Source: a virus
Taxonomy: Duplodnaviria > Caudoviricetes
DNA length: 64,000 nt
Direction: 5' to 3' (one strand)
Virus record (IMG/VR): IMGVR_UViG_3300037424_001651
Location: 1 to 64,000 of that record
The notes beneath the pieces were generated by a model that was not told the origin of the DNA, did not search any database, and worked only from the letters and a program-made list of their open reading frames with translations. Positions 4,785-56,122 of this stretch are shown piece after piece. Position 1 is the stretch's first letter; each line of letters opens with the position of its first letter. Both the position numbers and the translations under genes were made by a program.

Positions 4785-4802
4785 TTGTCCCTGACCCTGC
4801 CT
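4785..4802 (+). repeat. dispersed intergenic motif, copy 1
   Basis: TTGTCCCTGACCCTGCCT. Confidence 0.85.
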
Positions 4803-4827
4803 GTAGGCGGTGGTAAGAGGAGTGAAC

Positions 4828-5373
4828 ATGTCTGGTGATAACGACAGGGCCAAGGACAGCGCGGCCCCGGTGAAGAATGCCGTCACGCAAACCGTGGAGG
4901 CGACAGCCCGTGTCCTTGGTGATGGCATGGTACAAGTGATCCAAGAGAACCGTGATGCACCCTACATCTACATCCCCATCGTCCGCCGCATGCTCGACGC
5001 GCTGGAGCGTGTTAGTTCGATGCCCGTGTTGGGTGCGAGCGACCTCGGCGTTGGTGAGGACGGTTACGGTATGATCCGTGCAGGTAATCTCATGTCTGCA
5101 CGTGGCCTGCGTGACGATCCGGTCATGGCCGGTGTGCAAGGCGTGCTTGAAGTCCTTCAGCCTCTACTTGATCAGGTGATGGGGCAACAGCGCATTCCGG
5201 CGTTGCGGGCTGTGCTGGAGTCGCCGTTGTGCTCGGGTGAAGTCAAGCAGCGCGCGGCTGATGAACTCTCGCGTCTCGTCATGGACTTCATCGCCCCCGA
5301 GGCTGTGGATGCCGCAGCAGAATTTCTGGGAGCAGGACTCGATGGTGTTGTTCCGACCGTGGCCCCAAGGTGA
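4828..5373 (+). CDS. hypothetical protein
   Basis: SD GAGGAG + ATG. Confidence 0.6.
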   Translation: MSGDNDRAKDSAAPVKNAVTQTVEATARVLGDGMVQVIQENRDAPYIYIPIVRRMLDALERVSSMPVLGASDLGVGEDGYGMIRAGNLMSARGLRDDPVMAGVQGVLEVLQPLLDQVMGQQRIPALRAVLESPLCSGEVKQRAADELSRLVMDFIAPEAVDAAAEFLGAGLDGVVPTVAPR

Positions 5374-5472
5374 AACCATGAAAGTAGAAGTCAAGAACCA
5401 CTGCAATGGTGTCTTCTGCGAAAAGAAAGCCTTGAGGTAGTTCTTCTGACAACCGAAAGAAAGTAGGCAACC

Positions 5473-5757
5473 ATGAAAATTCGCACTGTGAATGCAGACT
5501 ACACTCTCGCAGTTGAGTCTGTAGACTATGATATCAGCAACAATGAAGTCAACGTACTTCTGACCAACACAGAAAATGGCGAGACAGTTTTCTTGATTTT
5601 TCACGAGGTAGACTGTCGCGAAATAGCTCATGCGCTGGCTCCGCACATTCGCCATGCGTGTTACGAGAAGGGCGCACATCCTGCGGCGCGCGAACTTCGG
5701 GATCTTACAAGTCTTGTCGAGAACACGATCCACGAGAGCGAGAAGGAGAAGCCATGA
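5473..5757 (+). CDS. hypothetical protein
   Basis: ORF track, coupled to next gene. Confidence 0.55.
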   Translation: MKIRTVNADYTLAVESVDYDISNNEVNVLLTNTENGETVFLIFHEVDCREIAHALAPHIRHACYEKGAHPAARELRDLTSLVENTIHESEKEKP

Positions 5758-5887
5758 AAATAACTACAGACATCATGTCACAAGACGGACGAAGAACCGA
5801 AGCTGATATCATGAACAAACACGCACTAGCGAGCGGGGACCGTGATCGTGCCTTGGAGAAGCTCCGCAAGGCGCTGGAGGGAACGGC

Positions 5888-6670
5888 ATGAACATTTACA
5901 TCCCGACAGTCTTTGGCGACGTGAACATTCACCCGGGGCGCGACGATGCCAAGGGTGTCACCGAAGTACAAACCACGAAGCTCACGCCGACTGAGAAAAA
6001 AGCTGTCATCGGCTTGCTCAACAAGTACACGGTGAATGCCGACCCGAAGGATCTGGAGGACAAGACCTTCCACATCGGCGAGAACTTTGCTGTGGTGCAC
6101 AGCTACCTTGTGAAACAGTTAAAAGCTGGGAAGAAGACGGTGACTGCGGCGAAGCTTGTAGATGGCAGCCTCATCGAGGTTCACGATGAAGAGCAGCTTC
6201 GCAAGCTCGGTGAGAGCGGCAAGGCGAAGGCTGTGACCACGACCTCGACGCCTGCACGTGGCTGTCCGATGCCGCGCTTCGAGCCTCGTGAGATCCGTGC
6301 GAGCCGGGTGCTGCAAGAGTTCCTCAACCCGGTACAGCTTCAAGACTTCGCGAACTACGGCGCGTTCGTGGTCTTCGGCGGCGACAGCGGTCACCGCTTT
6401 CGCATCACACATCGCTTTTCCCGTCTCTTCGAGAACCCCGATGAGCGCTGGTTCGTCAAGGACTTGGACGAGAATCGTGGTTACTGTTCGCACATCACCG
6501 AGCTTCCGCCGAGCGAGGAGATGCTGGCGCTCATGATCGCCATTGCCTTCAAGGAGAACTGGTGGCTGCATGAGCGGGGCTGCGACGACCCGGCGACCGG
6601 TGGCCCGGCGATTCGGCCCCTTTTGCGGGGTGACATCACTCCGATCCTCACGGCCATCGAGTTCGCGTGA
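5888..6670 (+). CDS. conserved-looking hypothetical protein
   Basis: ATGA overlap; strongly coding-like codon use. Confidence 0.7.
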   Translation: MNIYIPTVFGDVNIHPGRDDAKGVTEVQTTKLTPTEKKAVIGLLNKYTVNADPKDLEDKTFHIGENFAVVHSYLVKQLKAGKKTVTAAKLVDGSLIEVHDEEQLRKLGESGKAKAVTTTSTPARGCPMPRFEPREIRASRVLQEFLNPVQLQDFANYGAFVVFGGDSGHRFRITHRFSRLFENPDERWFVKDLDENRGYCSHITELPPSEEMLALMIAIAFKENWWLHERGCDDPATGGPAIRPLLRGDITPILTAIEFA

Positions 6671-6888
6671 TGCGCAGATCTTCTTTCAATGTTACCTACC
6701 GTCGCCGCGAGGACTGGGACGGCCCACCGGATCGGCCGAGCTACCGTATCGGCTTTGAGAAGGACGGCGAGGACATCGACTTGCTCCGTGCGATCCTCAA
6801 CACGTTGCAGGGTATGTGCGCACTGCACGAACTCGACGGCAAGCGTATCCGGGTCACCCTCTCCATCCTCGACGAAAAAACTTCTTGA
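6667..6888 (+). CDS. hypothetical protein
   Basis: Overlapping start, coding-like. Confidence 0.55.
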   Translation: MMRRSSFNVTYRRREDWDGPPDRPSYRIGFEKDGEDIDLLRAILNTLQGMCALHELDGKRIRVTLSILDEKTS

Positions 6889-6909
6889 CACCAACACCAA
6901 CATGGTGTT
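6885..6909 (+). promoter_or_regulatory. -35 TTGACA followed by inverted repeat AACACCA-ACA-TGGTGTT (candidate operator)
   Basis: Seen directly upstream of an RHH gene; -10 box is weak. Confidence 0.45.
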
Positions 6910-6922
6910 AGCTAGGGGAATC

Positions 6923-7093
6923 GTGACACCGAAAACCAAAACAGCTAAGAAAAAGGTCGTAACGATGAACCTTCGTATCCCCACAGTGCTGTATCGTAGG
7001 CTGGCGCGGGTCGCGGAGGCAGACCGTCGGTCTATGCATACATGTATCCTCATGGCCCTAGAAGCGTGGCTGGAGAGGCGGAAGAAGGCATGA
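6923..7093 (+). CDS. Arc/ribbon-helix-helix DNA-binding protein
   Basis: TMNLRIPTVLYRRLARVAEADRRSMHTCILMALE pattern. Confidence 0.75.
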   Translation: MTPKTKTAKKKVVTMNLRIPTVLYRRLARVAEADRRSMHTCILMALEAWLERRKKA

Positions 7094-7398
7094 TTCGGCG
7101 CTCCCAGCGTGGTTTTGGTGGCTATGCTGAAAAAGCACATACCCGGGTGAATACCCGGGTGACCTCGGTCGTCTCGCCCATCAGTACGGCACAGACGCTG
7201 ACGGAGGATAGTGTGGACACACAGACATGGCTAAAGCAGTGGGAAGATGCAGGTCGCCCGAAGGCGTTGCCGACCCGGCTTTTCTTTTCCTTGACAGCGG
7301 AGATCGTGCAGTTCTTGTACGAGACTGAGGACTGGGAGGTCTTCACGTGGGCTGAGGTGAATTCTGTCGTCGGCCTCGATCACGGCTTCGACGTTTAG
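7090..7398 (+). CDS. hypothetical protein
   Basis: Overlapping ATG; shares TWLxxxExAGRPxxLPxxLF motif with 17914. Confidence 0.6.
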   Translation: MIRRSQRGFGGYAEKAHTRVNTRVTSVVSPISTAQTLTEDSVDTQTWLKQWEDAGRPKALPTRLFFSLTAEIVQFLYETEDWEVFTWAEVNSVVGLDHGFDV

Positions 7399-7455
7399 TT
7401 CGATGAGGAGGGCTGCGCCGAGGACGCGGATGAGGGCGTCGAGAAGGGGTTTGTT

Positions 7456-7746
7456 ATGCAGGGCTTCAGCAACCAAGAGCAAGATGTGATCATGCTCTTG
7501 ACCGACGCGAATCTTCAGCGTCGCTATGCCATCGCTTGCTGGTGTGTGGCTGAGTTCGCGCCCGAGGCGCGTGAGAAGCTCATCCATGAGATCATTGGAC
7601 TTACGGCGTTGCGCCTCGATTGCATCCCGGAGCCGTGGAAGCTCTTCGCGTCTACAGCGGAAGATACGGACACGGTTCTTCTCCCGATACAACTTTCACG
7701 CTTGCGTGCGTTGGTGGACAACTATGAGGCGAGGATCAAGGAGTGA
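7456..7746 (+). CDS. hypothetical protein
   Basis: ORF track. Confidence 0.55.
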   Translation: MQGFSNQEQDVIMLLTDANLQRRYAIACWCVAEFAPEAREKLIHEIIGLTALRLDCIPEPWKLFASTAEDTDTVLLPIQLSRLRALVDNYEARIKE

Positions 7747-7751
7747 GGAAC

Positions 7752-10383: not shown

Positions 10384-10490
10384 GTGATATAGCCATCAAT
10401 GGTAGCGCAGCCGTTGGGGCACCCCCCTACGCGTAGTGATGCGTGTTAACGAAGAATAGCTTCGAGGCAAAGATCAAAGGAGTAAAGAAC

Positions 10491-12712: not shown

Positions 12713-13057
12713 ATGACACCAGAAGACCAAGAGAAGATGGATGGTTCGCCAGCACGCGTCTTCGCAGTGCCGGTCAGCAATGACGACACGTGCGACGATA
12801 CCTACGCCGGGCACCACAGTCACTACATCGACATCAAGTTCCAGCTTGGCCCTTGCGGTGAGGTCGGCGTGAACGGTTGCAGCATCCGCGATGTGATTCG
12901 CGTCCTCGGCGACAGGTTGGAAGGCTTCCAACGAGGGCCGTTCAAGTGCCGAGAGAACGCGCTGGCCATCACCAAGTTGCAAGAGGCGCAGCGCTGGCTC
13001 GCGCACCGTACCGAGGAACGGATGCAGCGAGGCGTCAAGGGCCGCAACGAGCCATGA
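12713..13057 (+). CDS. tad1: Tad1-family anti-Thoeris/CBASS signal sponge
   Basis: IKFQxG...DRLxxFQxGPFxCRENAxAITKLxEAxxWxxxRxEERxxRGVxG matches the Tad1 pattern as recalled. Confidence 0.82.
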   Translation: MTPEDQEKMDGSPARVFAVPVSNDDTCDDTYAGHHSHYIDIKFQLGPCGEVGVNGCSIRDVIRVLGDRLEGFQRGPFKCRENALAITKLQEAQRWLAHRTEERMQRGVKGRNEP

Positions 13058-13653
13058 GCGACACCTTCTTGTCCCGGCCCTGCCTTGATGAGGGTAAACA
13101 GCGCAGTCTTTATATCGCGTGTATGCCCGGTATGTCTGCGAGTGTCGATGTGAAGGGATCGTTCTTCCGTCCGATCTTGCGGGGGCTTCTCAAGGAGATG
13201 CAGGTCACGGCGCATTTTATCCGTTCTTGCGATCCTTCAATCAAGCAAACCAAGCGGTTCATTGAAAGAAATGGTAGTGTTGACCTTGGTCGCGCGCTGT
13301 TGCTTGTGGCGAAGAGCTTTGGGGGCGTGCGTATGCTCGTGGACGTCATCCCACATACGAAGGTTCAGTATGGGCGCGTGGCTCTTTTGAGTATTGATCC
13401 GTACGGGAAAGGTTATAGCTTGCATCGCAAGCCTATTATCTTACCGAAGTGGTGGTACAGCGACCCTTACGCCAAGGCAGTTAATTTCTATCAGGACAAC
13501 AAGGGCTTTCGTGGGGCGAAGGTCGTTGGTGCGGCCAACAAGAAACTGAGCTGCTTCCCGGACGGGGAGAAGGTCGCGCACATGAACATCGTTTTTCACC
13601 CCGCGGTCAAAGAGGCTGCGTCTGGCTTAGTGGCGTGGTTGTTGGAGCGGTAG
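13054..13653 (+). CDS. basic hypothetical protein
   Basis: ATGA overlap at 13054. Confidence 0.55.
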   Translation: MSDTFLSRPCLDEGKQRSLYIACMPGMSASVDVKGSFFRPILRGLLKEMQVTAHFIRSCDPSIKQTKRFIERNGSVDLGRALLLVAKSFGGVRMLVDVIPHTKVQYGRVALLSIDPYGKGYSLHRKPIILPKWWYSDPYAKAVNFYQDNKGFRGAKVVGAANKKLSCFPDGEKVAHMNIVFHPAVKEAASGLVAWLLER

Positions 13654-17913: not shown

Positions 17914-18624
17914 GTGGACATGGGCAAGGCTCCAAAAACGGATAAGTATGACGAGCTTCTCTCATCACGGGAAGTCACACGGCGGCTTAGCATCGCTTAT
18001 TCCACGCTACGCAAAAAAGTGAATAACGGCGAAATTCCGTCTGTACGCTGTGGCCGGAACTTTCGATTCCGTCGAGGGGACATCGAACAGTACATCGGCG
18101 GCGTCCTCCCATCCCAGCAAGCCCCGGAACTCGTCGCTCGGCCCGAGCCGGACCCCGATCCGGTACCGGCTGCGTCAGAGGAGCCGCTGGACGATAGAAC
18201 ATGGCTCCAGCGCTACGAAGCGGCAGGGCGGCCCGAGTCGTTGCCGCTCGACCTCTTTCTCACGGTACCGGACGCTGCCTTCGACCTCTCGGGCGAGATG
18301 CTCCCTCAGTTCCGAACTGCGGGGCCTGTTGCAGCCGTTATCGTCCGCAACGCACCCCGGAGCTTCCTCGTCTCGGTCTGCTGTGCCGGAAAATGGGAAG
18401 ACGTCGACGACGCCGCCAATACCACCGACGCGCGCTGGCTGGCCTGCGACGCCTTGTGGGCCACGATCCACGACAAGCCACACGCCGTCACGGAAGCCTT
18501 CGTCGAGGATCTGTGTCGTGCCTCCGTCCGTATGCATCGACTCCACGTGGTAGAAGATGCCCAGCTCTGGCGTGATAAATGCAACGAGGCTGAAGAAGGG
18601 TTTGAAGACGACTCGGCTGGGTAG
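17914..18624 (+). CDS. excisionase/MerR-type HTH (HTH_17-like) protein with C-terminal extension
   Basis: LLSSREVTRRLSIAYSTLRKKVNNGEIPSVRCGRNFRFRRGDI. Confidence 0.8.
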   Translation: MDMGKAPKTDKYDELLSSREVTRRLSIAYSTLRKKVNNGEIPSVRCGRNFRFRRGDIEQYIGGVLPSQQAPELVARPEPDPDPVPAASEEPLDDRTWLQRYEAAGRPESLPLDLFLTVPDAAFDLSGEMLPQFRTAGPVAAVIVRNAPRSFLVSVCCAGKWEDVDDAANTTDARWLACDALWATIHDKPHAVTEAFVEDLCRASVRMHRLHVVEDAQLWRDKCNEAEEGFEDDSAG

Positions 18625-19393: not shown

Positions 19394-19954
19394 GTGGCAG
19401 CGCTGTGGGCAACAGGTGATACGCACTTCTGGCACTGGAATATCGGTAGGCCAGACTACTGTAACCGGCCCGACAACTGGCAGGAACTGATCATCGCACG
19501 CTGGAACGAGGTCGTACAACCCGGAGACTGGGTGTTACACGTCGGCGACTTCGCCTTTGGCCGGGACGCCACGTTCAATCGGATCATCGCGACACGCCAG
19601 CGACTCAACGGCCACATCTTGCTTATCTGGGGCAACCACGACCGCATCCTCAAGCCACGTAGATGGCTAGAGAACGTCGGTATCGATGTCATCCTTCGGG
19701 ATCACGGCACTAGCTTTGACATTGGTAAGTACAAGGTTGTATGTCTGCATCAACAGCCTGAAAAATATCCGCCTGAATGGGGAAAGCGCATCATCTTTGC
19801 CAGCCACGCCCCCATCCGGAATCAGGCTCAAATGCCTTATTTTTACGGCCACATCCACAATAATGAAGACACAGCGCAGTTTCCCGGGTGCTGCCTTTGC
19901 GTCGAGGTGACGGATTACAGGCCTGTATGCATTGCTCGGGATATTGATGCTTGA
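19394..19954 (+). CDS. calcineurin-like metallophosphoesterase
   Basis: DTHF, GDF, GNHD, SHAP, GHIH motifs. Confidence 0.92.
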   Translation: MAALWATGDTHFWHWNIGRPDYCNRPDNWQELIIARWNEVVQPGDWVLHVGDFAFGRDATFNRIIATRQRLNGHILLIWGNHDRILKPRRWLENVGIDVILRDHGTSFDIGKYKVVCLHQQPEKYPPEWGKRIIFASHAPIRNQAQMPYFYGHIHNNEDTAQFPGCCLCVEVTDYRPVCIARDIDA

Positions 19955-19979
19955 CACCAGAATGACACCACGGTATGTT
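19951..19979 (+). promoter_or_regulatory. sigma70-like promoter with GACACCA direct repeat
   Basis: TTGACA-17 nt-TATGTT. Confidence 0.6.
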
Positions 19980-19997: not shown

Positions 19998-20156
19998 ATG
20001 GCGGCGCAAGAAGAGAAGCGATTCACGTTTCGTGTTCCGCTGAAGCTTTATAAGAAGATCAAGCGGGCCGCAGAAAAGGAGCACCGTCCCCTCAATCAGT
20101 GGCTCATCGTACACCTCAAAGATCTGCTCAAGCAGCCGGTGCGTTATGGGAGCTAG
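19998..20156 (+). CDS. Arc/ribbon-helix-helix protein
   Basis: RFTFRVPLKLYKKIKRAAEKEHRPLNQWL. Confidence 0.8.
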   Translation: MAAQEEKRFTFRVPLKLYKKIKRAAEKEHRPLNQWLIVHLKDLLKQPVRYGS

Positions 20157-23525: not shown

Positions 23526-24763
23526 TCGACGTTCAATTCACTGCGGAGCAGCTACGCGCTGTTGAACTTGCGCTGTGCGAGCCTGTGAGCATCCTCACGG
23601 GCGGCCCGGGGACAGGGAAGACCACGGTCTGTCGTAAGATTGTGGAGGAGTTCCGAGCGGCGCGAAAGCGCGTGCTGTGCGCCGCGCCGACCGGGAAGGC
23701 GAGCCGACGGTTACAAGAACAGACAGGCTTCGCCTCTACCATTCACCGCTTGCTGGAATGGAGTCATCAGGAATCCGGGTTCACGCGCGACAACATGAAT
23801 CCACTCCAGGCCGATGCAGTTATCGTGGATGAGGCGTCCATGATCGACGTGGTGCTCATGGCATCGCTTCTGGACGCTATTGCGACTGGTACGCATCTTA
23901 TCGTGGTGGGGGACGCAGATCAGTTACCCCCGGTGGGGCCAGGTAGTGTGCTGCGTGATATGATCGCCTCTGGGATCATCCCAGTCACCCGGCTGACGGT
24001 GGTGCAGCGTTTCAAGGAGTCCGAGCGGCTGAAGGTGAACGCGCACCGTATCGTAAAGGGCGACGCGCTTTACCTGGATCGCCACAACAACGACGACTTC
24101 TTTTTCATGGAGCGCGAGGACCTGCAGCAAGCTGCGGATACAATTGTGAACCTCGTGACGAAGATCATTCCACGTCGCCATCAGTTCGACCCGGTGAACG
24201 ACGTGCAGGTGCTCTGCCCCATGAAAAAAGGCATCCTCGGGGTACACAACCTCAACGAGTTGTTGCGCGAGCGCCTCAACCCCGAAGAGTATGGGATGCC
24301 GGTTGCGAAGGTGTCGACGTACAACGTCGACAAGGATGTTTCTACCATCCGGACTTTTCGCATGGGCGACAAGGTCATGCAGATGCGCAACAACTACAAA
24401 ATCGGTGTCTTTAACGGTGAGGTAGGTCGTATTACGGCCATCGACACAGGAAAGCTGACTACGGTTACCTTCGACGAGCAAGACAAGTTCTATGACTTCC
24501 ATGCACTCAAGGAGCTTCAGCTTTGTTACGCTTCGACGGTACACAAGAGCCAAGGCTCGGAGTATCCCTGTGTCATCCTCGTGATGCACAACACGCACTG
24601 GAACATGCTTTTCAGGGCGCTGCTCTATACCGGCGTCACACGCGCCAAGAAGGTGGTCTACATCGTGGGCAACAAGCGTGGCCTCTACCAAGCTCTGAGT
24701 AACGACAGGCCTGTGCTGCGCAGAACGAGCTTGACTGAACGACTTCTAGAGGGTGCGTCATGA
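23513..24763 (+). CDS. recD2: RecD2 C-terminal SF1B helicase half
   Basis: GGPGTGKTT, DEASM, GDADQL, YASTVHKSQGSEY, LLYTGVTR; GTG 23513 with SD AAGGGGA. Confidence 0.92.
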   Translation: MALLIDVQFTAEQLRAVELALCEPVSILTGGPGTGKTTVCRKIVEEFRAARKRVLCAAPTGKASRRLQEQTGFASTIHRLLEWSHQESGFTRDNMNPLQADAVIVDEASMIDVVLMASLLDAIATGTHLIVVGDADQLPPVGPGSVLRDMIASGIIPVTRLTVVQRFKESERLKVNAHRIVKGDALYLDRHNNDDFFFMEREDLQQAADTIVNLVTKIIPRRHQFDPVNDVQVLCPMKKGILGVHNLNELLRERLNPEEYGMPVAKVSTYNVDKDVSTIRTFRMGDKVMQMRNNYKIGVFNGEVGRITAIDTGKLTTVTFDEQDKFYDFHALKELQLCYASTVHKSQGSEYPCVILVMHNTHWNMLFRALLYTGVTRAKKVVYIVGNKRGLYQALSNDRPVLRRTSLTERLLEGAS

Positions 24764-25236
24764 GGCAGGGTAAGGGCCAAGTGGTGCGGCGCATCACGGT
24801 CGAGTGGGAAGACGGCGACACTGAATACATCGAGGGCAATGATGCTGTGCGGTGGTGGTCGATCATCGACACTATCGTGCGGATGCACATAGCGGCGAAC
24901 CCGAATACGCCGGAGCGCCGCAACTTCGGCGGTACATGGAAGAAGGTTGGCGATGGCGAAGACTAAGTCCACGAAGCGCCGCCACCGCCGCGTCCCGTTG
25001 CCACAATACCGGAACCGATCTCGTGCGCGCGGAGGTTTGCGTGATGGCGCATGTGAAAACAGGAGATCCTTTCATCGATGCCGTCTTCGACGGGATCGAA
25101 ACTGAGGACATGGCGGACGCGGACGGGGAATATCCGCTGGTCTTCCAGTGTCCACAGTGCGGATGCTTGCCGTACGTCTATCGGTCTGCGCACCCCGAGA
25201 ACGGCGTCGCGTGTCCACAGTGCGGAAGGAGCAGTG

Positions 25237-25800
25237 ATGCACTTCGACATCGCTAAGCACACGATCTTCAAGACGGTGACTGGGAGCCACGCCTACGGGT
25301 TGGCCACGCCGGAGTCCGACACGGACTACCGCGGCGTATGCGTGCCGCCGCAGGTGTTGGTGCTCTCGCCGTTCAAGAACTTCGAGCAGTACGAGGGTGA
25401 CCCCGCATCGGATGACGACACGGTCATCTACAGCATCCTGAAGTTCGTCAAGCTGGCGTCCGAGGCGAACCCATCGTTGCTGGAGCTTTTCTACATCGAC
25501 GAGCGCCACTGGGTCCAGACCACGCCGTGGTGGGATACGCTGTACGAGCACCGAGATTGGTTTCTCTCGACGCGGGTCGTGCACGCGTTCAGCGGCTATG
25601 CAGCCGCGCAGTTAAAGCGGATGCGTAACCACGCCCGCTGGATAGAGAACCCGCCCACAGAGCCGAAGCCCGAGGACTTCAATCTGACGCACGCAATGCT
25701 GCTTGGCAAAGACGAGATCGGGGCCTACGACTGGCTCAACGAACAAGAGGTCGGGCACTTCCGGTCCGTGACGGTCATCTTACCTGTGGTGAGAAGCTAG
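25237..25800 (+). CDS. RlaP-like Pol-beta nucleotidyltransferase, apparently truncated or frameshifted
   Basis: GSHAYGLATPESDTDYRG, KFVKLA..ANP, FSGYA..Q; helical C-terminal region missing. Confidence 0.8.
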   Translation: MHFDIAKHTIFKTVTGSHAYGLATPESDTDYRGVCVPPQVLVLSPFKNFEQYEGDPASDDDTVIYSILKFVKLASEANPSLLELFYIDERHWVQTTPWWDTLYEHRDWFLSTRVVHAFSGYAAAQLKRMRNHARWIENPPTEPKPEDFNLTHAMLLGKDEIGAYDWLNEQEVGHFRSVTVILPVVRS

Positions 25801-25856: not shown

Positions 25857-25872
25857 TTGTCCCTGACCCTGC
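25857..25872 (+). repeat. dispersed intergenic motif, copy 2
   Basis: TTGTCCCTGACCCTGC. Confidence 0.85.
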
Positions 25873-25910
25873 ATCGGTTGTAGGTGTAGTGTGGTGCGCA
25901 GGAGGCGCGT

Positions 25911-27557
25911 GTGGCGATGTGGAAGTGGTGGCAGTGGAGCCGTGATCTAGGGTGGGTGGTAGGCGCTGTGTTCGTTTTGATCATAATTCTATGTCAATTA
26001 GCGTCTTGTCCGCGGTCCGCTGTAGGTGCAACACGAGAAAAGCTATCCAACGAAAACCATGCAGTTTACCGGGACTTCGCTGCTCGTTTCCTATGCAGCA
26101 CTCGATATACACGCACCCAAAAACTTGACAACGTGGTTACAGTCGAGGAAATTAAGGGCACGGCATGTTCCGTCGTTAGCTACAAAGATTCACGAGCAAA
26201 CTGCTTTCGCAACCTTTTTTGCGTGTGGTTGTGCTGGGCGACGAGCGGCCGAGACAGAGGAGGCGAAGTCATGATGCGACGTATACCAATAGGTGGAGTG
26301 TGTGTAGTAGCCGTTTGTGTGTTGCTTGCCGGTTCCGCGGTGGCGCAAGAAGTTGATTCTGGAGTTGATCCTGAAACCGATCCAAAAGCGTGGGAGGAAT
26401 ACGAAGACGCAGCTAAACAAGCCGGTGCTGGTGAAACTGTTGCGATGCCTGGGGACGCCGGTTGGGGCAAACCGTGGAAGCAGATGTGTGCGTCCAATGA
26501 TGATTGGTGTCCCAACATCGCGGATGGTGTGAATTCGGGTTTGCAGTGGTGTACATCACCAAAGTGTATGAACAACCATCGTAATGGGAGCTACGCGATT
26601 TATGTTGAGTGGAGCGCCTGGATCGAGGTGGATTGCGGGGCCGTAGACGGATTTGGCCAACCGGGTTTTTGGCCCGCGCAGACGATGCGCACCGAATCTT
26701 TTGGTGACGTGTTCGGCATGACGAAGTCAGGAACGAAAGAATGCGGTTTGGCGAGTGTTGACCGTGAGCATGCGGCGCAGTTGAATATCAACGCCTGCGA
26801 CCCGCGCGCAAATATATATGCAACTTGTTGGTATCGGAATAATCGCCTCATCGCTTTACGCGAGAAGATGCCAGAGGTGATAGTAGCTCCGTTGGAGGAT
26901 CAATGGTTGATTGCTGGTGCAGGTGGGTCTGTAGGCTTGGGTAAGGTGATCTTGTTGCTTCAGCGTTCAAACGCTCTCGCGACGGATGTGAATGGGGACC
27001 TCAAGCATGATCATCCGTACGAGTACATGATTCGTTATCTGCAAACCTTACACGCGAAGTGGAACAACGCACAGAAGGTCAACAAGCTCACGAAGTCCAT
27101 GGGCATTAATGGCGCGCTGGGTCAGCTTGGTTATACGGAGAAGCAGTGGGGGTACCTCAAGAAGTTCTTGGATCTGTACAAGAAGCAAGGCGAGTGGTCC
27201 TCGATCTTCGGCTTTCGCCCGGGCCGTACCGCATTTCGGATCGCGCGGCCGGGCCGCGTTGCGGAAATCGTTGCGCCACTTTATTACGGGACTATTCCGT
27301 GGGGGGAGCCGAAATTACCGGAACGTCCGAAGGGCATCACGGAGTATCCTGGGGACAAGTTGCATTGTGCATGCGGCAACTGGCCTGAATTAAAGACCAA
27401 GAAGCCGAGTGCCGCACAGACGCAGGCAGTGGCGGCTGTATTGCCTGCTGCGGCTGTTCCATTTGATCCGGCGGCGCTTATATGCGAGACAAAGAAGAAT
27501 ACCCTCGTTTGCGCGCATCCGAAGCTGCCCACTGGGACGTATCCAGGCGGAGGTTGA
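25911..27557 (+). CDS. secreted lytic-transglycosylase-like protein (second start 26271 with signal peptide)
   Basis: MRTES..T.S...CGLAS...DPRANIYA SLT-like pattern; SD GAGGAGG before 26271. Confidence 0.6.
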   Translation: MAMWKWWQWSRDLGWVVGAVFVLIIILCQLASCPRSAVGATREKLSNENHAVYRDFAARFLCSTRYTRTQKLDNVVTVEEIKGTACSVVSYKDSRANCFRNLFCVWLCWATSGRDRGGEVMMRRIPIGGVCVVAVCVLLAGSAVAQEVDSGVDPETDPKAWEEYEDAAKQAGAGETVAMPGDAGWGKPWKQMCASNDDWCPNIADGVNSGLQWCTSPKCMNNHRNGSYAIYVEWSAWIEVDCGAVDGFGQPGFWPAQTMRTESFGDVFGMTKSGTKECGLASVDREHAAQLNINACDPRANIYATCWYRNNRLIALREKMPEVIVAPLEDQWLIAGAGGSVGLGKVILLLQRSNALATDVNGDLKHDHPYEYMIRYLQTLHAKWNNAQKVNKLTKSMGINGALGQLGYTEKQWGYLKKFLDLYKKQGEWSSIFGFRPGRTAFRIARPGRVAEIVAPLYYGTIPWGEPKLPERPKGITEYPGDKLHCACGNWPELKTKKPSAAQTQAVAAVLPAAAVPFDPAALICETKKNTLVCAHPKLPTGTYPGGG

Positions 27558-35176: not shown

Positions 35177-35361
35177 GCCACGTCTCCCGGTGGCGGCGAG
35201 CTTCGGCTTGTCCGTCGCGCGGGTTTTCGTGGAGGCAGGGTCAGGGACAAGAACGGGGATTGCGCTTCGGCGCATAACCGGTCCCCCGGGTGACCGAGTC
35301 TTCAGCATGGCGGGCTGGAGGTGCTCGGTCACCTGCTCCACGTAATTCCGAACACGGGAGG
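35177..35361 (+). ncRNA. candidate multi-branched structured RNA
   Basis: Four hairpins, two cUUCGg loops, long-range closing stem. Confidence 0.55.
35233..35250 (-). repeat. dispersed intergenic motif, copy 3
   Basis: Reverse complement TTGTCCCTGACCCTGCCT, identical to copy 1. Confidence 0.85.
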
Positions 35362-35366
35362 ATTAG

Positions 35367-35909
35367 GTGCGCATCGCATTTGATGTGGATGGCGTCCTGC
35401 GTGATCTGATGGCGGTCTACGCGCCGCACGTCGACCACAGTGTGGACGAGATTACGACTTACGATTCCGCGCTGAACTTCGCAGGCGGATTGGACCAGTT
35501 CCTGGAGCTGCTGGACGGTCAGCGCTGCTGGACGCTGGCCAAACCGCATCCGCACTTGCTCGGATTGTACAAGCACATCGAGGCCCACGGCCATACGATC
35601 CTCATCGCTACGGCCATCAGCACTGAGGCGGGGCGGCAAGGCACATTGGAGTGGCTTTGCAAGCACGATGTCAACTACGACGAGCTTCACTTCTGCGTAG
35701 ATAAGCTCCAGGTCCGGTTTGACGCCATCATCGAGGATTACCCCAGCATGGCCCTTGCGGCGGCACGCGCAGGCTGTGCGGCGTTCCTGGTCCACCGACC
35801 GTGGACCGCGAATGTGGAAATCAAGCATCCGAACTTGTTCAGGCTGCCGCCGGACGAGGCTGCGCTTGGTATGGTGATGGAGGTACTGGACGGGCGCAGC
35901 GGTAAGTAG
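35367..35909 (+). CDS. HAD 5'(3')-deoxyribonucleotidase (NT5C-like)
   Basis: FDVDGVL, IATA, WL..H, IIED. Confidence 0.88.
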   Translation: MRIAFDVDGVLRDLMAVYAPHVDHSVDEITTYDSALNFAGGLDQFLELLDGQRCWTLAKPHPHLLGLYKHIEAHGHTILIATAISTEAGRQGTLEWLCKHDVNYDELHFCVDKLQVRFDAIIEDYPSMALAAARAGCAAFLVHRPWTANVEIKHPNLFRLPPDEAALGMVMEVLDGRSGK

Positions 35910-36002
35910 TCCTTGCACGGCAAGGCGAACGGAGAACGATCTGTCCTGCACGGGTGCGGGTCACGATACCTCGCCTCCGTTCGCCTTGCGGCACAGGGAC
36001 AC

Positions 36003-36020
36003 TTGTCTCTGACCCTGCCT
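36003..36020 (+). repeat. dispersed intergenic motif, copy 4
   Basis: TTGTCTCTGACCCTGCCT. Confidence 0.8.
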
Positions 36021-41028: not shown

Positions 41029-41055
41029 GAGGCGGGGCGGGACAAGGAGGGCGTT

Positions 41056-44964: not shown

Positions 44965-44981
44965 TTGTCCTGACCCTGCCT
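44965..44981 (+). repeat. dispersed intergenic motif, copy 5
   Basis: TTGTCC-TGACCCTGCCT. Confidence 0.8.
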
Positions 44982-45028: not shown

Positions 45029-45058
45029 TTGCAATCCTGGCACGACTGCGTTTATATT
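45029..45058 (+). promoter_or_regulatory. sigma70-like promoter
   Basis: TTGCAA-18 nt-TATATT. Confidence 0.5.
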
Positions 45059-47454: not shown

Positions 47455-47471
47455 AGGCAGGGTAAGGACAA
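47455..47471 (-). repeat. dispersed intergenic motif, copy 6
   Basis: Reverse complement TTGTCCTTACCCTGCCT. Confidence 0.7.
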
Positions 47472-49756: not shown

Positions 49757-49767
49757 GAGACAATCTG

Positions 49768-51017: not shown

Positions 51018-51343
51018 TCATCAGGGCGCGGAGCTTCGAGAAGTGGATGCAGGCGAACTTCACGCGGGGCGAGCTTCAGGATCTCGCGCGCTACGGCGCG
51101 AACACAGGCTGGCAGGGCTTGACCTATTACAACGACACGGTCGCGCTCTACGACAAGTTCAACGTTGAGATCTGGACCGCGCTCTACGAAGATGCCGAAT
51201 CCTTCGGCGCGAAGAACGCCATCGCATTCATCGCTGACTTTGGTGGTGCAGACAGCGTCTCCGACGACGACACGTTCAAAAACCTGCTCGTATGGTACAT
51301 GGCCGAGCGCACAGCACACGAACTGCTTGGAGATGATTACTAA
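51002..51343 (+). CDS. conserved acidic phage protein
   Basis: G..G..GL.YYNDT..LYD....EI...N.LVW...E. Confidence 0.7.
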   Translation: MAKKMIIRARSFEKWMQANFTRGELQDLARYGANTGWQGLTYYNDTVALYDKFNVEIWTALYEDAESFGAKNAIAFIADFGGADSVSDDDTFKNLLVWYMAERTAHELLGDDY

Positions 51344-52107: not shown

Positions 52108-52970
52108 TGGGCTTCGGACGCAAATGGAAGAACTGGGGCGACGCGGCTTCCGACAGGCGCGCGGAAGTCGGACGCATCATCTTCGAGCAGTTCGGCGGCA
52201 GGCAGGCCATGGCCATGATCGGCGGTCAAGCCACGTTGCTGAACTTGCCGCACTACGGCGAAGGCGGCCTCGGCATCAAATGGCCGAACAAGCAGCGCTC
52301 CAAGGGAAACTACGTCGAGATCCTCTTGAGGCCCGACGATACGTACGACATGACCTTCTACAACCTGACGATCCGGGCCAAGAAGCCGGTCAAGAAGTTC
52401 GAGGGTGTGTACGCGGAAGACCTTCGACGGCTGTTCGAGGATCAGACGGGTTGGTACCTGTCGCTGGGTGGTGCAGGATTCGGTGCGCACAAGAAGAAGG
52501 GTGAGGCTAAAGCCCCCACGATATACCTGACCAAGAGCGGCTCGCACTGGCAAGTCATCGCGCACGGGCAGGCTATAGCCCAACACCGCAGTGAAGAGCA
52601 AGCGGCGCGTGCCTACTTGTGGTACGGCGGCGTCCCGCTTGAGCCTTGGGTCTACTTGGGTGGCATCACAGGGGAAGATCGTTTCATCCGCCGCTCTGAA
52701 CTCTACGCAGCAGGACTCCAAGGCTTGGGAGCACTTGCTCTAGGTCCGCATCTGACCGAGGCGCAGATTGCAGCAGTGCGAGAAGAAGTCATACGCGAAG
52801 GTGTGCCTGTGCGTTTCCTTCACGACGGACAGAACTTGAACATCGTGACTGGGGAGTTGCTCCCGCGTGGCACTAACGTCCTGCACCAAATGGTGTACTG
52901 GGGCTTCCCGCGGTCGACCTCGAAGAAGATCGCCAAGTGGCTCGGTGTCAAGGCCGTGTTCTCGGAGTGA
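52107..52970 (+). CDS. leader-tagged three-domain polyprotein
   Basis: MGFGRKWKNWG; I.EQFGG...M.G...DDTY.M.F...GVYAEDL...FE.QTG.YLSL; linkers GAGFG and LQGLG. Confidence 0.72.
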   Translation: MGFGRKWKNWGDAASDRRAEVGRIIFEQFGGRQAMAMIGGQATLLNLPHYGEGGLGIKWPNKQRSKGNYVEILLRPDDTYDMTFYNLTIRAKKPVKKFEGVYAEDLRRLFEDQTGWYLSLGGAGFGAHKKKGEAKAPTIYLTKSGSHWQVIAHGQAIAQHRSEEQAARAYLWYGGVPLEPWVYLGGITGEDRFIRRSELYAAGLQGLGALALGPHLTEAQIAAVREEVIREGVPVRFLHDGQNLNIVTGELLPRGTNVLHQMVYWGFPRSTSKKIAKWLGVKAVFSE

Positions 52971-52975
52971 AGCAC

Positions 52976-53365
52976 ATGAGCTTTGGACGCAAATGGAAGA
53001 ACTGGGGCGGCCTGCGTGGGACGTCATGTAGCGAAGCGGATGGGTGGCTCCCCGAAGCAGAGTGTAGGAAGTACCACCCCAAGTATTTCCGCTTCGAGTG
53101 GAACGCGGATCACACGTACTGTCGCCCGCACAGAGGCGATGCGTGGTGGGACGATGCCTCCTACATCGCGCATCAAACAGGTGTAGATGCGATGGCGATG
53201 GAGGATTGGTGGTTCCGCGAGGAGGCACGCCAGCACGAAGCCGCGCGACAAGAACAGCGCGAGACGCGTGAGGCGGGCTGGCGGCGTAGAGGCAGTGCGC
53301 TGCCGGGGCGCAAGCCACAAAAGTATCGCCGCAGGCGGATCGATGTGGATGACATCCCCTTTTAA
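52976..53365 (+). CDS. leader-tagged hypothetical protein
   Basis: Starts MSFGRKWKNWGG. Confidence 0.65.
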   Translation: MSFGRKWKNWGGLRGTSCSEADGWLPEAECRKYHPKYFRFEWNADHTYCRPHRGDAWWDDASYIAHQTGVDAMAMEDWWFREEARQHEAARQEQRETREAGWRRRGSALPGRKPQKYRRRRIDVDDIPF

Positions 53366-53374
53366 GGCGCGAAG

Positions 53375-53662
53375 ATGAGCTTTGGGCACAAATGGAAGAA
53401 CTGGGGCCACCTGCCCGAGAAAAAGATCCTTTGGGAGGAAGCTGCCTTCCGCATCACAACGGACGGTTCGGGTGCCTACAACATGGAGAAACTACGCGGC
53501 CGCCCCACTGACAATCTTCCTGTAGGGAGCATCGAGTATTTTCCTCCTGAGACGCCATTGGAAGTTGTCATCAAGGAAGCGCGGTTGCTTTGCCAAGCCC
53601 AGATTCAACGGCAACGATTGACACGCGTCTATCGCCGTGGTGGACGCGGACGCGGAAGGTGA
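53375..53662 (+). CDS. leader-tagged hypothetical protein
   Basis: Starts MSFGHKWKNWG. Confidence 0.65.
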   Translation: MSFGHKWKNWGHLPEKKILWEEAAFRITTDGSGAYNMEKLRGRPTDNLPVGSIEYFPPETPLEVVIKEARLLCQAQIQRQRLTRVYRRGGRGRGR

Positions 53663-53665
53663 ATC

Positions 53666-54547
53666 ATGAAATTTGGACGTAAGTGGGCGAACTGGGGCGG
53701 CTTTGGGGCGACGCCAACTGCACGCGAGCTGGAAGTGCTCAAGGCTATCATCCACAGCGCGTATCACGACGGCGCGGATCCGGTGGACAACCCGGTCTGG
53801 TCGTGGTCAGCCCTGAAGAGCCGCAGTGACAACGCCGTCTTCGGTTCCTTGGTGAAGAAGGGCTGGGCTGGTTCTTCGTACTATGAGGAGAACGAGACAA
53901 TCGTCTGGATTACGCAGGAAGGCATGAACGTGCTACGCGCCGCAGGCGGGATGGCCGGTTTCGGTGGTCATGGCGCAGACATCATCGTGGTGGACCGCGC
54001 CGGGAATGTGCTGGAGACAGCGAAGGAAGGGATCCCGCGAGCTGCCATCGCCCAAGGCCGCTTTGACTCGCGGCGCTTCATCGAGGCGAACCTGCCGTGG
54101 TCGAGCGTCGCACGGATGTCTGACACGGAAGTCCTCGGCGTGGACGTCAGCTTCACAGAGCGGGATAGGCACGTCATCCGGGTCGTCGTGGCAACGCCGG
54201 AGCAGCGCGGCCACTGGAAAGAAGGCAGCGCGGACGATTGGGAATTGTACAGCAAGCCCGGTAGGAATGCTGCTGCCAAGGGCCTGAATGCAGCGCTGAA
54301 GAAAGCTATGAAGATGATCGACACCACACTGGTGATCGGGGACCTGGACTTGCAGCCAGAGGACATCGCAAAGATCGCGAAGGTGATCTCCAACGCGTAC
54401 GCGAAGTACATGGCTCCGGCGCTGATCAAGTATCGAGCGCTGGGTGCCGGAGATAGCGAGGGCTACTACCACGCGAATCAAGCGCTGATCGACCACGTGA
54501 AGCGCGCAAACGGCTGGTGGGACATCGACTTCAGAGACTACCTGTGA
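53666..54547 (+). CDS. leader-tagged multi-domain protein
   Basis: MKFGRKWANWGGFG; internal MAGFG. Confidence 0.7.
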   Translation: MKFGRKWANWGGFGATPTARELEVLKAIIHSAYHDGADPVDNPVWSWSALKSRSDNAVFGSLVKKGWAGSSYYEENETIVWITQEGMNVLRAAGGMAGFGGHGADIIVVDRAGNVLETAKEGIPRAAIAQGRFDSRRFIEANLPWSSVARMSDTEVLGVDVSFTERDRHVIRVVVATPEQRGHWKEGSADDWELYSKPGRNAAAKGLNAALKKAMKMIDTTLVIGDLDLQPEDIAKIAKVISNAYAKYMAPALIKYRALGAGDSEGYYHANQALIDHVKRANGWWDIDFRDYL

Positions 54548-54565
54548 TGCACGCGCCGCTCACAG

Positions 54566-54582
54566 TTGTCCCGACCCTGCCT
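54566..54582 (+). repeat. dispersed intergenic motif, copy 7
   Basis: TTGTCCC-GACCCTGCCT. Confidence 0.75.
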
Positions 54583-54596
54583 CAAGGAGTAGTACG

Positions 54597-55079
54597 ATGA
54601 CGACACGTTGCACAGTTGAGATCTGGGCTGCTGATATGCGCGTACCAACGGTGAGTCTATATCATCACACCGATGGTGATCCAGGCTTCATGGGTCCGAA
54701 GCTCGAAAGGTTCATGAAGTACATCATGAAAGTGTTACCATACCGACACGACGAAGCGGCGACAGTTGCAGCGATGCTCGTGAAGCTCTCGTCCGATAAT
54801 TATGATGGGCCGGTTGAACCGAATACTGGACCTGTCGAAACCTGGATTCCGAAAAATAGCGAGGTGATGGGGGCACGGGCGCTGATTCCGTTCTTCCATC
54901 CGACGTGTGTGGTGCACTGGGACATCGCTTACTTGTGGCGTGTCAAACTCGGGAAGGTATACGCAAAGAATAGGGGCTACAAGATCGAGTGTTATGTACC
55001 CAGCTTTGATTATGAAACAGGTGAGGTTCTCGATCTGAGGAAGGTCAACTGGAAGGCTGAGGCAAAGAAGAGGCGTTGA
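54597..55079 (+). CDS. conserved phage protein
   Basis: MTTR.....LY.H.DG.P..MG..L pattern; SD AAGGAG. Confidence 0.7.
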   Translation: MTTRCTVEIWAADMRVPTVSLYHHTDGDPGFMGPKLERFMKYIMKVLPYRHDEAATVAAMLVKLSSDNYDGPVEPNTGPVETWIPKNSEVMGARALIPFFHPTCVVHWDIAYLWRVKLGKVYAKNRGYKIECYVPSFDYETGEVLDLRKVNWKAEAKKRR

Positions 55080-55678
55080 TGTACGCTGTTGGGCACATGG
55101 CTGGATTTGGTGCGACCGCTGAGAAGCGGCGTGTGGACGTCGTCGGTCTATACCCCGAGGAGAATAAGTACCTCGGGACGGTGTGGAAGGTGTTCTACAC
55201 GGGTGCAGTGTCTACTATGTACCCGAGCGAACGTACATTGCGGTTCGTGAACGAATACTTCGCGACGAAGTATCCACATGTTCCAGCGACGGCTGAAGCA
55301 CATTTCAAGCTTGATGGGACGATGGACTACATGGAGGTCTTCGCACCGTTCGCGGTTGGGCCTCGTCCGGCTCCGGTTTCGTTGCCTTATACAACGGTAT
55401 CGATCCCAGTTGAGATTCGTTATGGGAGCTATCTCATTCGTACAACTGGTTTTCGTACGAGCTATTTGTCGGAGCGTAGTATTGCGTTCCTTAACGCATG
55501 GGTTACTTCGCAACAGCATTGGTCGGAGAAGTACAAGTATGAATTCTGGAAGCCGAAGGATGTGGTAGTGCGGTTGGATGCTGTGACTGGACGTCCTGAC
55601 AAGATAACCGTAAACGTTGGCCTTGGATCACTCGCGGACGCGAGCAAGGCGAAGGAAACCTACCTCGCAATGTTGTGA
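55076..55678 (+). CDS. hypothetical protein with MAGFG leader and internal duplication
   Basis: Two similar halves (YPSERTLRFVN / YLSERSIAFLN). Confidence 0.6.
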   Translation: MMYAVGHMAGFGATAEKRRVDVVGLYPEENKYLGTVWKVFYTGAVSTMYPSERTLRFVNEYFATKYPHVPATAEAHFKLDGTMDYMEVFAPFAVGPRPAPVSLPYTTVSIPVEIRYGSYLIRTTGFRTSYLSERSIAFLNAWVTSQQHWSEKYKYEFWKPKDVVVRLDAVTGRPDKITVNVGLGSLADASKAKETYLAML

Positions 55679-55704
55679 GGAACCAGAAAGAAGAGGAAGC
55701 TAAA

Positions 55705-56106
55705 ATGGCCCAAAAAACAAGTAGCAAGAAGCGGACGAGTAGCAAGAAGCGGACGAAGTCTGGCGACAAGTGCAAAGGCAAGATCTACTGGAACGCGGTC
55801 GCAATGGCGCAAGGGACCAAGCATAAGACGGCTGCAAGTACGCAGGTCGATCATTGTGTCCGTACTTGTCGTGTCGGGCGCGATGTTTGCGAAAGCACTG
55901 TGAAGTCCGGCCTGAAGGGGCGCAGGAAGGCTCGCAAGAGCGGTGTGCCTTATGGACGCAAGCTGTCGCAGACCAAGGCCGCGAAGGCGGCTCGTACAGG
56001 CTTCAAGACGGCTTCCAAGTCGTGCAAGCGCGCGAGCAAGAGCCGAGTGGGCTTCCTGTCCTGCATGAAGAAGACGGCCCCGAGGGAGATCGCGAAGAAG
56101 ATGTAA
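55705..56106 (+). CDS. very basic Lys/Arg-rich, Cys-containing protein (candidate DNA-condensing core protein)
   Basis: SSKKRT x2, high K/R content. Confidence 0.55.
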   Translation: MAQKTSSKKRTSSKKRTKSGDKCKGKIYWNAVAMAQGTKHKTAASTQVDHCVRTCRVGRDVCESTVKSGLKGRRKARKSGVPYGRKLSQTKAAKAARTGFKTASKSCKRASKSRVGFLSCMKKTAPREIAKKM

Positions 56107-56122
56107 GCAGGGTCAGGAACAA
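56107..56122 (-). repeat. dispersed intergenic motif, copy 8
   Basis: Reverse complement TTGTTCCTGACCCTGC. Confidence 0.75.

Follow-up and report, generated by a model that had tools for sequence, protein, structure and literature searches.

Inverted pairs of an asymmetric two-block DNA word at the gene junctions of an uncultured phage: a possible docking site for a phage regulator

An uncultured phage carries, at its gene junctions, 14 copies of an asymmetric, bipartite DNA word of 17–18 bp, composed of TTGTCC, a free spacer of 2–3 nt and ACCCTGCCT. We interpret the word as a putative bipartite site that a phage DNA-binding protein would read, serving as an operator, a roadblock or a loop anchor, and give this reading a probability of somewhat under one half (about 0.45). 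Among known systems the nearest to it, in our best reading, are the C1 operators of phage P1. The window comprises the opening 64 kb of an IMG/VR phage record of 75.5 kb, itself an incomplete contig; ten of the sites lie within the window and four beyond its end.

A two-block weight matrix finds the 14 sites at 21–27 bits across the 75.5 kb record, where about 0.1 would be expected by chance, and below them there is a gap in the scores, the next matches reaching 19.4 and 16.6 bits. With up to three mismatches allowed there are nine matches against 0.57 expected, and for the 18-mer six against 0.06. No other 9-mer of the genome is as over-represented as ACCCTGCCT; the half-blocks alone show no enrichment in it. 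Information content drops to zero immediately outside the two blocks, leaving the flanks empty, and the spacer varies in both sequence and length, the 1-nt length variation sitting mid-element. Information restricted to the blocks, a variable spacer and empty flanks together form the signature of direct base readout. We rejected an adapter or assembly artefact because the copies differ from one another, come in two lengths and lie exactly between intact genes.

The sequence-only reading had reported eight copies, and all eight are present at the positions and on the strands it gave, the last spanning 56105–56122; the copies at 4785(+) and 35233(−) are, as it remarked, identical across 18 bp. 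The observation is real, and larger than first noted. The copies at 13069(+) and 24763(−) had been missed. Of the partial matches it mentioned, the one near 41031 is a plausible decayed copy; the one near 60221 scores below 9 bits and is no copy. Twelve of the 14 copies form six close inverted pairs (A to F), with members 0.17–2.5 kb apart, and the nodes of the arrangement lie about 10 kb from one another. The copies, and a promoter within one pair, are as follows.

4785..4802, plus strand: copy, 18-nt form, perfect; single copy, node 1; in a 52-nt gap between ORFs 4287–4775 and 4828–5373
13069..13085, plus strand: copy, 17-nt form, one mismatch, about 22–23 bits; node 2; 12 nt past the stop of ORF 12713–13057 and within the first codons of ORF 13054–13653, whose start is uncertain
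24763..24780, minus strand: copy, 18-nt form, 1–2 mismatches; pair A, left; adjoins the stop codon of a RecD2-like helicase gene
25857..25874, plus strand: copy, 18-nt form, one mismatch; pair A, right
35233..35250, minus strand: copy, 18-nt form, perfect; pair B, left; 61 nt past the stop of the SSB gene
36003..36020, plus strand: copy, 18-nt form, one mismatch; pair B, right; 15 nt ahead of the start of a TSCPD-domain gene
41030..41045, minus strand: possible decayed copy with a 1-nt spacer and two block mismatches; 16.3 bits, a score at which chance is possible; fills a 27-nt gap separating two ORFs
44965..44981, plus strand: copy, 17-nt form, perfect; pair C, left; 8 nt past the stop of a thioredoxin-like gene and 47 nt upstream of a sigma70-like promoter
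45029..45058, plus strand: sigma70-like promoter inside pair C; hexamer matches 9/12, 18-nt spacer
47455..47471, minus strand: copy, 17-nt form, perfect blocks; pair C, right; directly past a stop codon and 37 nt ahead of the next start
54566..54582, plus strand: copy, 17-nt form, perfect; pair D, left; in a 49-nt gap, with a ribosome-binding site immediately after it
56105..56122, minus strand: copy, 18-nt form, two mismatches, about 21–22 bits; pair D, right; reaches into the stop codon of the preceding ORF, 19 nt ahead of the next start
65367(+), 65532(−), 74383(+) and 74742(−), genome coordinates beyond the window: copies of pairs E and F

All 14 copies lie at gene junctions. The earlier claim that every copy is intergenic holds without ambiguity for ten of them, in a genome of which about 16% is intergenic; the remaining four extend into the first or last codons of ORFs with weak support for their starts or for their being real. 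The copies at 13069(+) and 24763(−) each sit at a stop/start overlap. Several of the gaps contain little beyond the motif and a ribosome-binding site.

The inverted pairs bracket short cassettes or strong sigma70 promoters, and three of the six bracketed units carry a promoter of their own. Pair A encloses a small ORF and a RlaP-type nucleotidyltransferase gene, pair B a 5'-nucleotidase-like gene, pair C a cassette with an endolysin-like protein bearing a PG_binding_1 domain, and pair D three ORFs without an assigned function. Pairs A and B are opposite in polarity to pairs C–F, and the plus copies of pairs C, E and F each precede the promoter. Perfect sigma70 promoters (TTGACA-N17-TATATC) lie within two of the pairs; a motif copy stands on either side of the start site, upstream and downstream, which is the geometry of loop repression.

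The motif itself is not a sigma70 promoter, as had been proposed from the missing −10 box at 17 bp: in no copy is a −10-like hexamer properly spaced from TTGTCC, and the promoter scanner called no sigma70 promoter at any motif site. Only three of the 14 sites are near a recognisable promoter, plus copies that sit 28–51 nt upstream of sigma70-like −35 boxes, and none overlaps one. A promoter or terminator for unrecognised phage transcription machinery would account for the length and sharp edges of the word, which resemble those of phage RNA polymerase promoters. It would also suit an incomplete contig in which neither sigma70-like promoters nor intrinsic terminators are enriched. We consider it the least probable of the readings weighed here: half of the copies face against every neighbouring gene, the length varies by 1 nt in the middle of the element, and neither a sigma region 2 nor a T7-type polymerase was found in the contig, although the search for the latter (PF00940) gave no match in control genomes either. 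Other look-alike signals were considered and rejected: the DnaA box of high-GC bacteria (6/9 positions, with the CACA end missing), the sigma54 −24/−12 element (the GG-N10-GC register misfits), KOPS (no fit) and the MotA-type −30 box (no consistent −10).

Seven copies are on the plus strand and seven on the minus strand of a genome transcribed almost wholly rightward, and their orientation nearly alternates (11 of 13 neighbours, P about 0.01). The presence of both orientations in a one-way-transcribed genome accords better with recognition of duplex DNA than with an RNA or promoter signal. The balance and alternation would nevertheless give each copy a complementary one on its own rightward transcript, where plus and minus copies could pair over 17 bp, the duplex being a target of RNase III or a shield for the enclosed mRNA; long-range duplexes cut by RNase III have a precedent in rRNA operons. 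The sequences of the partners make such an RNA-level element highly improbable. They show no covariation, and their differences yield G.A, A.A and C.A mismatches: five of the six pairs differ at non-pairing positions, only the single difference in pair B being a G.U. Pair D retains just an 8-bp helix, though identical copies exist elsewhere in the genome. Transcripts from the promoters of pairs C, E and F start beyond the plus copy and so miss one strand of the duplex, and local RNA folding gave no consistent structure that includes the motif.

The proposal of the sequence-only reading that the motif is bound by a phage regulator is supported in part, and a site acting at the DNA level remains the best reading. 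Such a site would be a composite of double-stranded DNA, with contacted blocks of 6 and 9 bp and 2–3 uncontacted bases between them, read by one phage-encoded sequence-specific protein, either a two-headed monomer or a small asymmetric complex. Docked at gene junctions, the protein could control the flow of transcription. Where copies fill tiny gaps within operons, it may act as a roadblock against elongating host RNA polymerase. At inverted pairs, two docked proteins might bridge and loop out the bracketed strong promoter or accessory cassette, and the looped-out unit would be repressed or insulated. The layout counts in part against a plain operator model, which predicts neither the near-alternating orientation nor nodes set evenly about 10 kb apart.

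The spacing of the nodes is regular, with a gap CV of 0.12 for eight nodes; none of 20000 random placements was equally regular and a period scan gave P values of 0.004–0.03, a regularity that depends partly on including the weaker 13069 copy. The segments between sites also differ in composition: all those running from a plus to a minus copy have a GC content of 0.51–0.57, below all those running from a minus to a plus copy (0.57–0.61). Both features would fit an element of genome architecture, replication or packaging, in which the sites, as polar barriers, nick sites or anchors, partition the chromosome at intervals of about 10 kb and are not gene-specific operators. We think this unlikely. 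The GC asymmetry changes with window size (nine of 14 sites at 100–150 bp, 13 of 14 at 750–1000 bp), GC skew has no breaks at the nodes, and we know of no evenly spaced, alternating barrier or anchor system in phages. A related idea, to which we give a slightly lower chance, is that the sites are boundary elements: inverted pairs set about 10 kb apart, with an orientation that depends on the base composition of the DNA beside them, would be bound by a bridging protein, and this protein would fold the chromosome of the phage into insulated domains or loops. To our knowledge, oriented insulator sites have so far not been described in viruses of bacteria. For nicking, the closest likeness is to the nick-associated motifs of T5, the phiKMV group and the phage tf group, which have about a dozen copies per genome, no assigned function and a short asymmetric consensus that is sometimes bipartite (PMC3517423, PMC11780129). 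Those motifs lie on one strand and inside as well as outside genes (PMC3517423, PMC11780129), whereas the present word is split 7:7 between the strands and confined to junctions; the strand count argues against a one-strand nick motif.

The six close inverted pairs enclose discrete units, much as inverted repeats flank the invertible segments of the Hin/Gin or Mpi systems, and the three units with their own promoter resemble invertible switches. The sequence-only reading had raised a recombination or packaging signal marking module boundaries. In that line, the copies could be recombination sites, either invertase crossovers or short linkers for cassette exchange between related phages, and inverted flanks would guard a cassette against deletion. 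We regard this, too, as improbable. Resolvase (PF00239) and Phage_integrase (PF00589) domains are absent from the 75.5 kb contig, with positive controls found. Among the 25 Pfam families listed of the 75 that match the proteome there is no recombinase; nor do these 25 include a C1-family repressor or a recognisable structural gene. Inversion of pairs A, B or D would merely put promoter-less genes antisense, and copies two apart are direct repeats, between which a recombinase would delete essential DNA. The cassette genes resemble the rest in GC3 and codon score on average, giving no sign of recent import.

The inverted 17–18 bp ends around segments of 0.18–2.5 kb, and the restriction of the motif to this lineage, are also what the terminal inverted repeats or scars of a small family of mobile, MITE-like elements would leave. 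This origin is very unlikely: neither target-site duplications nor subterminal similarity are present, the flanks of partner copies share nothing, the six bracketed segments carry unrelated genes or promoters, and the pairs differ in polarity. The only transposase found in the contig is of the IS200/IS605 type, which does not use inverted ends. The gene within pair B is conserved in relatives, with a divergence about equal to that of the polymerase (both on contigs of the same 33.8 kb length), which argues against mobility and against exchange of this cassette.

Dispersed asymmetric words are the means by which some phages, such as P1 and L5, run a whole genome with one protein. The C1 operators of P1, which a monomer binds, are found in either orientation and in part as inverted double sites. 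With 22 dispersed operators of an asymmetric 17-bp consensus (PMC8546580), P1 resembles the present phage in carrying many copies genome-wide. P1 operators overlap or adjoin promoters; of the 14 sites described here three lie near a recognisable promoter and none overlaps one. Even spacing with alternating orientation is found here and is not a known feature of P1. The sequences are unrelated, no C1-like protein was identified among the Pfam families listed and there is no sign of lysogeny. As no integrase was found, the phage looks virulent, and a global repressor of the lysogeny type is not expected.

The cluster A stoperators (L5 gp71, TipsytheTRex repressor) are likewise short asymmetric words in many copies, more than 20 in L5, that occupy promoter regions as well as short intergenic gaps within operons (PMC9283540). 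Their reader is a monomer with two DNA-binding domains (PMC9283540), which would suit the bipartite site described here. A defining property of L5 stoperators is an orientation linked to that of transcription, and repression is lost when a site is turned round (PMC9283540); in the present phage the copies alternate in orientation under a single direction of transcription. The label stoperator-like, used in the earlier reading, fits the short intergenic gaps and fails on orientation, which is untied to transcription. Stoperators are also shorter (13 bp against 17–18 bp), and a search of solved chains with the protein at 17914 found no homologue of their repressor. Cluster O mycobacteriophages carry more than 30 copies of a 17-bp repeat scattered across the genome, many of them intergenic and of a function not known (PMC4351075), but those repeats have dyad symmetry and one third lie inside genes.

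The phage encodes putative DNA-binding proteins with two HTH_17 domains and Arc-like ribbon-helix-helix proteins. Of the binders suggested earlier, those at 19998 and 17914 have solid domain matches; 6923 has a marginal one, and for 61597 there is no support. The features concerned are the following.

17914..18624, plus strand: candidate binder, 236-aa protein with an N-terminal HTH_17 domain (excisionase/MerR-like, E 2.7e-8)
19951..19979: sigma70-like promoter just upstream of the 19998 gene
19998..20156, plus strand: candidate binder, 52-aa Arc-like ribbon-helix-helix protein (Arc, E 1.6e-6)

The protein at 17914 matched no solved chain by sequence at E up to 1, and searches with its C-terminal part gave nothing. 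None of the candidate binder genes adjoins a motif site, and we only infer that either protein might read the motif.

Pfam and PHROGs searches with about 60 proteins individually annotated almost nothing. Megablast and tblastn against cultured phages recovered remote polymerase domains only, and scans of IMG/VR with the polymerase, a polymerase alignment, Ro60 and a nucleotidase alignment, as well as a scan of GTDB genomes, found no relatives. JGI metagenomes contain one relative with a polymerase identity of 32%, which has neither the motif nor an analogous repeat family. Closer relatives came from Logan, ENA and one JGI contig; only three polymerase relatives were found among 5.8 billion proteins. 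Pattern scans for the motif in IMG/VR and GTDB genomes returned single chance-level matches and no locus with two good copies.

With no recognisable structural gene among the listed Pfam hits and few relatives, the motif is the clearest handle on regulation in a lineage that is almost entirely uncharacterised. Its layout of inverted pairs and even spacing has not been described for the known systems compared. If a bridging protein binds, the sites would offer a way to insulate accessory cassettes and strong RNA-gene promoters within long operons, here concerning nucleotide- and RNA-metabolism genes, a Y RNA promoter and a tRNA. A plain operator set would be a new yet ordinary member of the known dispersed operators; boundary elements, if that reading were true, would give phages an equivalent of oriented insulator sites.

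The Y RNA array has no complementarity of at least 8 nt to the motif, and the idea of a Y RNA guide was rejected. Strong hairpins are not co-located with motif sites except at 36003, where the longest local hairpin of the genome (35909–36000) directly precedes the copy.

All eight copies of the motif described in the sequence-only reading were confirmed. Querying the whole genome with TTGTCC, two or three free bases and ACCCTGCCT, we detected 14 sites scoring 21–27 bits, a range in which about 0.1 sites are expected by chance; the next-best scores are 19.4 and 16.6 bits. The copies added by this census, together with a probable decayed copy, are the following:

13069, plus strand: motif copy within the window
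24763, minus strand: motif copy within the window
Genome 65367, plus strand: motif copy beyond the window
Genome 65532, minus strand: motif copy beyond the window
Genome 74383, plus strand: motif copy beyond the window
Genome 74742, minus strand: motif copy beyond the window
41030, minus strand: probable decayed copy

Among the genome's 9-mers the block ACCCTGCCT shows the strongest over-representation, and k-mers enriched between genes are dominated by the motif. Information content is restricted to the two blocks and is zero on either flank, and the spacer between them varies in length and sequence. The k-mer analysis showed no separate enrichment of either block, so the motif is one composite, asymmetric and sharp-edged site. 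Outside its own genome, pattern scans of IMG/VR and GTDB genomes gave only isolated hits at the level of chance.

Ten of the 14 copies are clearly intergenic, compared with ∼16% of the genome. The remaining four extend into the opening or closing codons of ORFs for which the start, or the ORF itself, is weakly supported; two of them lie exactly at a stop/start overlap. Several gaps of 35–52 nt contain the motif, the next ribosome-binding site and little else; they lie within operons and have neither promoter nor terminator. Two other features were observed next to individual copies. No local inverted repeat of the genome is longer than the one directly upstream of the copy at 36003 (window 35909–36000; 26-nt arms, 85% complementary, 40-nt loop), possibly a hairpin that serves in processing or termination. 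Downstream of the copy at 25857, ∼400 nt (window 25875–26270) combine a weak coding signal with patches rich in AT and a promoter-like site facing left (26104–26131, minus strand); where the 548/428-aa ORF truly begins is uncertain.

The best reading of the motif, judged from sequence, is a putative recognition site of a sequence-specific protein that binds duplex DNA. This reading is based on the sharp edges of the bipartite word, on its apparently uncontacted spacer and on its occurrence in either orientation and exclusively between genes. A sigma70 promoter had already been rejected for want of a −10 box, and indeed no −10 element occurs at the right distance and the promoter scanner reports no promoters at the sites. 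A promoter for a phage polymerase or a dedicated sigma factor is contradicted by half of the copies, which point against every nearby gene; searches for a T7-type polymerase and for sigma region 2 found neither, the former having been run without a positive control. Folds around 13 sites share nothing that would indicate local RNA structure. A long-range RNA duplex between inverted partners is opposed by the differences between them, which give G.A, A.A or C.A mismatches, and by pair D, which retains only an 8-bp helix though the genome has identical copies at other sites; moreover, in pairs C, E and F the plus copy lies upstream of the local promoter. The Y RNAs lack complementarity of at least 8 nt to the motif, which argues against their targeting it.

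The strand order of the copies along the genome is + + − + − + + − + − + − + −, alternating in 11 of 13 steps (P about 0.01), or in 9 of 11 steps (P about 0.03) for the twelve strongest copies. Twelve copies can be grouped into six close inverted pairs, and the nearest-neighbour pairs are inverted in all six cases, an arrangement that is new relative to the earlier observation:

Pair A, 24763 (minus) and 25857 (plus): brackets an RlaP-type nucleotidyltransferase cassette (window 25237–25800)
Pair B, 35233 (minus) and 36003 (plus): brackets a 5'-nucleotidase (NT5C-like) gene (window 35367–35909)
Pair C, 44965 (plus) and 47455 (minus): brackets a promoter and an endolysin-like cassette
Pair D, 54566 (plus) and 56105 (minus): brackets three genes without known function
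Pair E, 65367 (plus) and 65532 (minus): brackets the perfect sigma70 promoter of the Y RNA array
Pair F, 74383 (plus) and 74742 (minus): brackets a second perfect sigma70 promoter and a tRNA-Met gene

Inverted pairs that bracket discrete units would suit the proposed recombination signal at module boundaries, but no serine or tyrosine recombinase was found in the contig in searches whose positive controls worked. An inversion system is further opposed by three of the six pairs, for which inverting would make no sense. Were the pairs the ends of MITEs, target duplications and subterminal similarity would be expected; both are absent, the bracketed contents are unrelated, and the pair B gene is conserved in relatives with a divergence similar to that of the polymerase, on a contig of the same 33.8-kb length as that encoding the related polymerase. 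Known nick motifs are placed on one strand only and occur inside genes (PMC3517423, PMC11780129), unlike this motif.

The copies fall at nodes, at about 4.8, 13.1, 25, 35.5, 46, 55, 65.5 and 74.5 kb. The gaps between nodes have a coefficient of variation of 0.12, a regularity equalled by none of 20,000 random placements, and the best-supported period in a scan is 10.0 kb (P 0.004–0.03, depending on inclusion of the weaker 13069 copy). Across 13 inter-site segments, every segment running from a plus to a minus copy (G+C 0.51–0.57) lies below every segment running from a minus to a plus copy (0.57–0.61), a perfect separation in which G+C is lower beyond the GCCT end of the motif than beyond its TTGTCC end. 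The local asymmetry depends on window size, being seen at 9 of 14 sites at 100–150 bp and at 13 of 14 at 750–1000 bp. A plain operator model predicts neither alternation nor even spacing; these two features and the G+C asymmetry keep an architectural role of the motif alive as its most novel interpretation.

The pattern TTGACA, 16–18 nt, TATA[A/T][T/C] is matched in full at just two places in the genome, one in pair E and one in pair F, and both matches end in TATATC. Each is accompanied by a 15-bp palindrome (positions in L124, the stretch holding DNA beyond the window, are given in brackets):

Genome 65412–65440 (L124:3412–3440): sigma70-type promoter in pair E, driving the Y RNA array
Genome 74451–74480 (L124:12451–12480): sigma70-type promoter in pair F, driving a second tRNA-Met gene (genome 74492–74566)
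Genome 65344–65358 (L124:3344–3358): palindrome GATCTAGTATAGATC
Genome 74409–74423 (L124:12409–12423): second copy of the palindrome, with 2 mismatches

In both pairs the start site is flanked by one motif copy upstream and one downstream, by analogy the geometry of loop repression. The palindrome lies 8–9 nt from the plus motif copy, on opposite sides in E and F, and nowhere else in the genome; a second regulator, a dimeric one, probably uses it as its operator.

Two known systems come closest: the 22 C1 operators of P1, which are dispersed, asymmetric and 17 bp long (PMC8546580) and which the motif resembles as a dispersed asymmetric word, and the stoperators of L5-like phages, which number more than 20 and are bound by a monomer carrying two DNA-binding domains (PMC9283540). 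A defining feature of stoperators is an orientation tied to transcription; that of the motif is not so tied, and we therefore do not class it as a stoperator, the suggested likeness being a loose one in that the sites lie in short gaps between genes. On the model of these precedents, we propose a phage regulator that would block elongation when bound at in-operon copies and, by bridging inverted partners, would loop out the bracketed units, silencing or insulating them. A regulator binding site, as first proposed, remains the best reading of the sequence, but the candidate binders are unproven:

17914: HTH_17 protein
19998: Arc-like protein, with a weaker Arc-like match at 6923
Genome 66492–68417 (L124:4492–6417): HTH_17 domain at the C-terminus of Ro60

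The extra C-terminal HTH_17/excisionase-like DNA-binding domain of this Ro60 (TROVE) protein spans ∼80 residues. Annotations of the closest homologues, the database proteins P0012 and P0014, show this fusion too, and homologue P0025 has a ribbon-helix-helix domain in its place; most homologues have neither.

The record is linear, 75,547 bp long, with 57% G+C and an estimated completeness of 83% (IMG/VR virus record); its first 64,000 bases are the window. A crude codon-usage gene call gives ∼120 genes, nearly all on the plus strand. They include a family A DNA polymerase fused to a UDG-like domain, SNF2 and RecD2-like helicases, primase, a PD-(D/E)XK nuclease, SSB and ThyX, and there is one IS200/IS605 element. 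No capsid, portal, terminase or tail gene appears in the Pfam and PHROGs results for 118 ORFs (25 listed of 75 matching Pfam families). Possibly the record covers only the non-structural portion of a larger genome, which makes the completeness estimate doubtful. The relatives are missing from phage, IMG/VR and GTDB collections, and a single metagenome scan recovered only a remote relative, without the motif. Related proteins are encoded on contigs of other collections: P0002 and P0136 in Logan (33.8 kb), P0003, P0132 and P0137 in ENA, and P0133 in JGI (2.1 kb). Among 5.8 billion proteins the polymerase has only three relatives (61–69% identity); the lineage is very isolated. RNA-handling functions are unusually abundant in this phage: the RlaP-type nucleotidyltransferase, the 5'-nucleotidase-like protein, Ro60 with its Y RNA array, an RRM protein (window 1818–2123) and seven tRNA genes. 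Just upstream of the motif copy at 13069 lies the gene of a 114-aa protein (window 12713–13057) that matches the Acb2/Tad1 hairpin domain below threshold (E 1.5e-4) and may be an anti-defence sponge.
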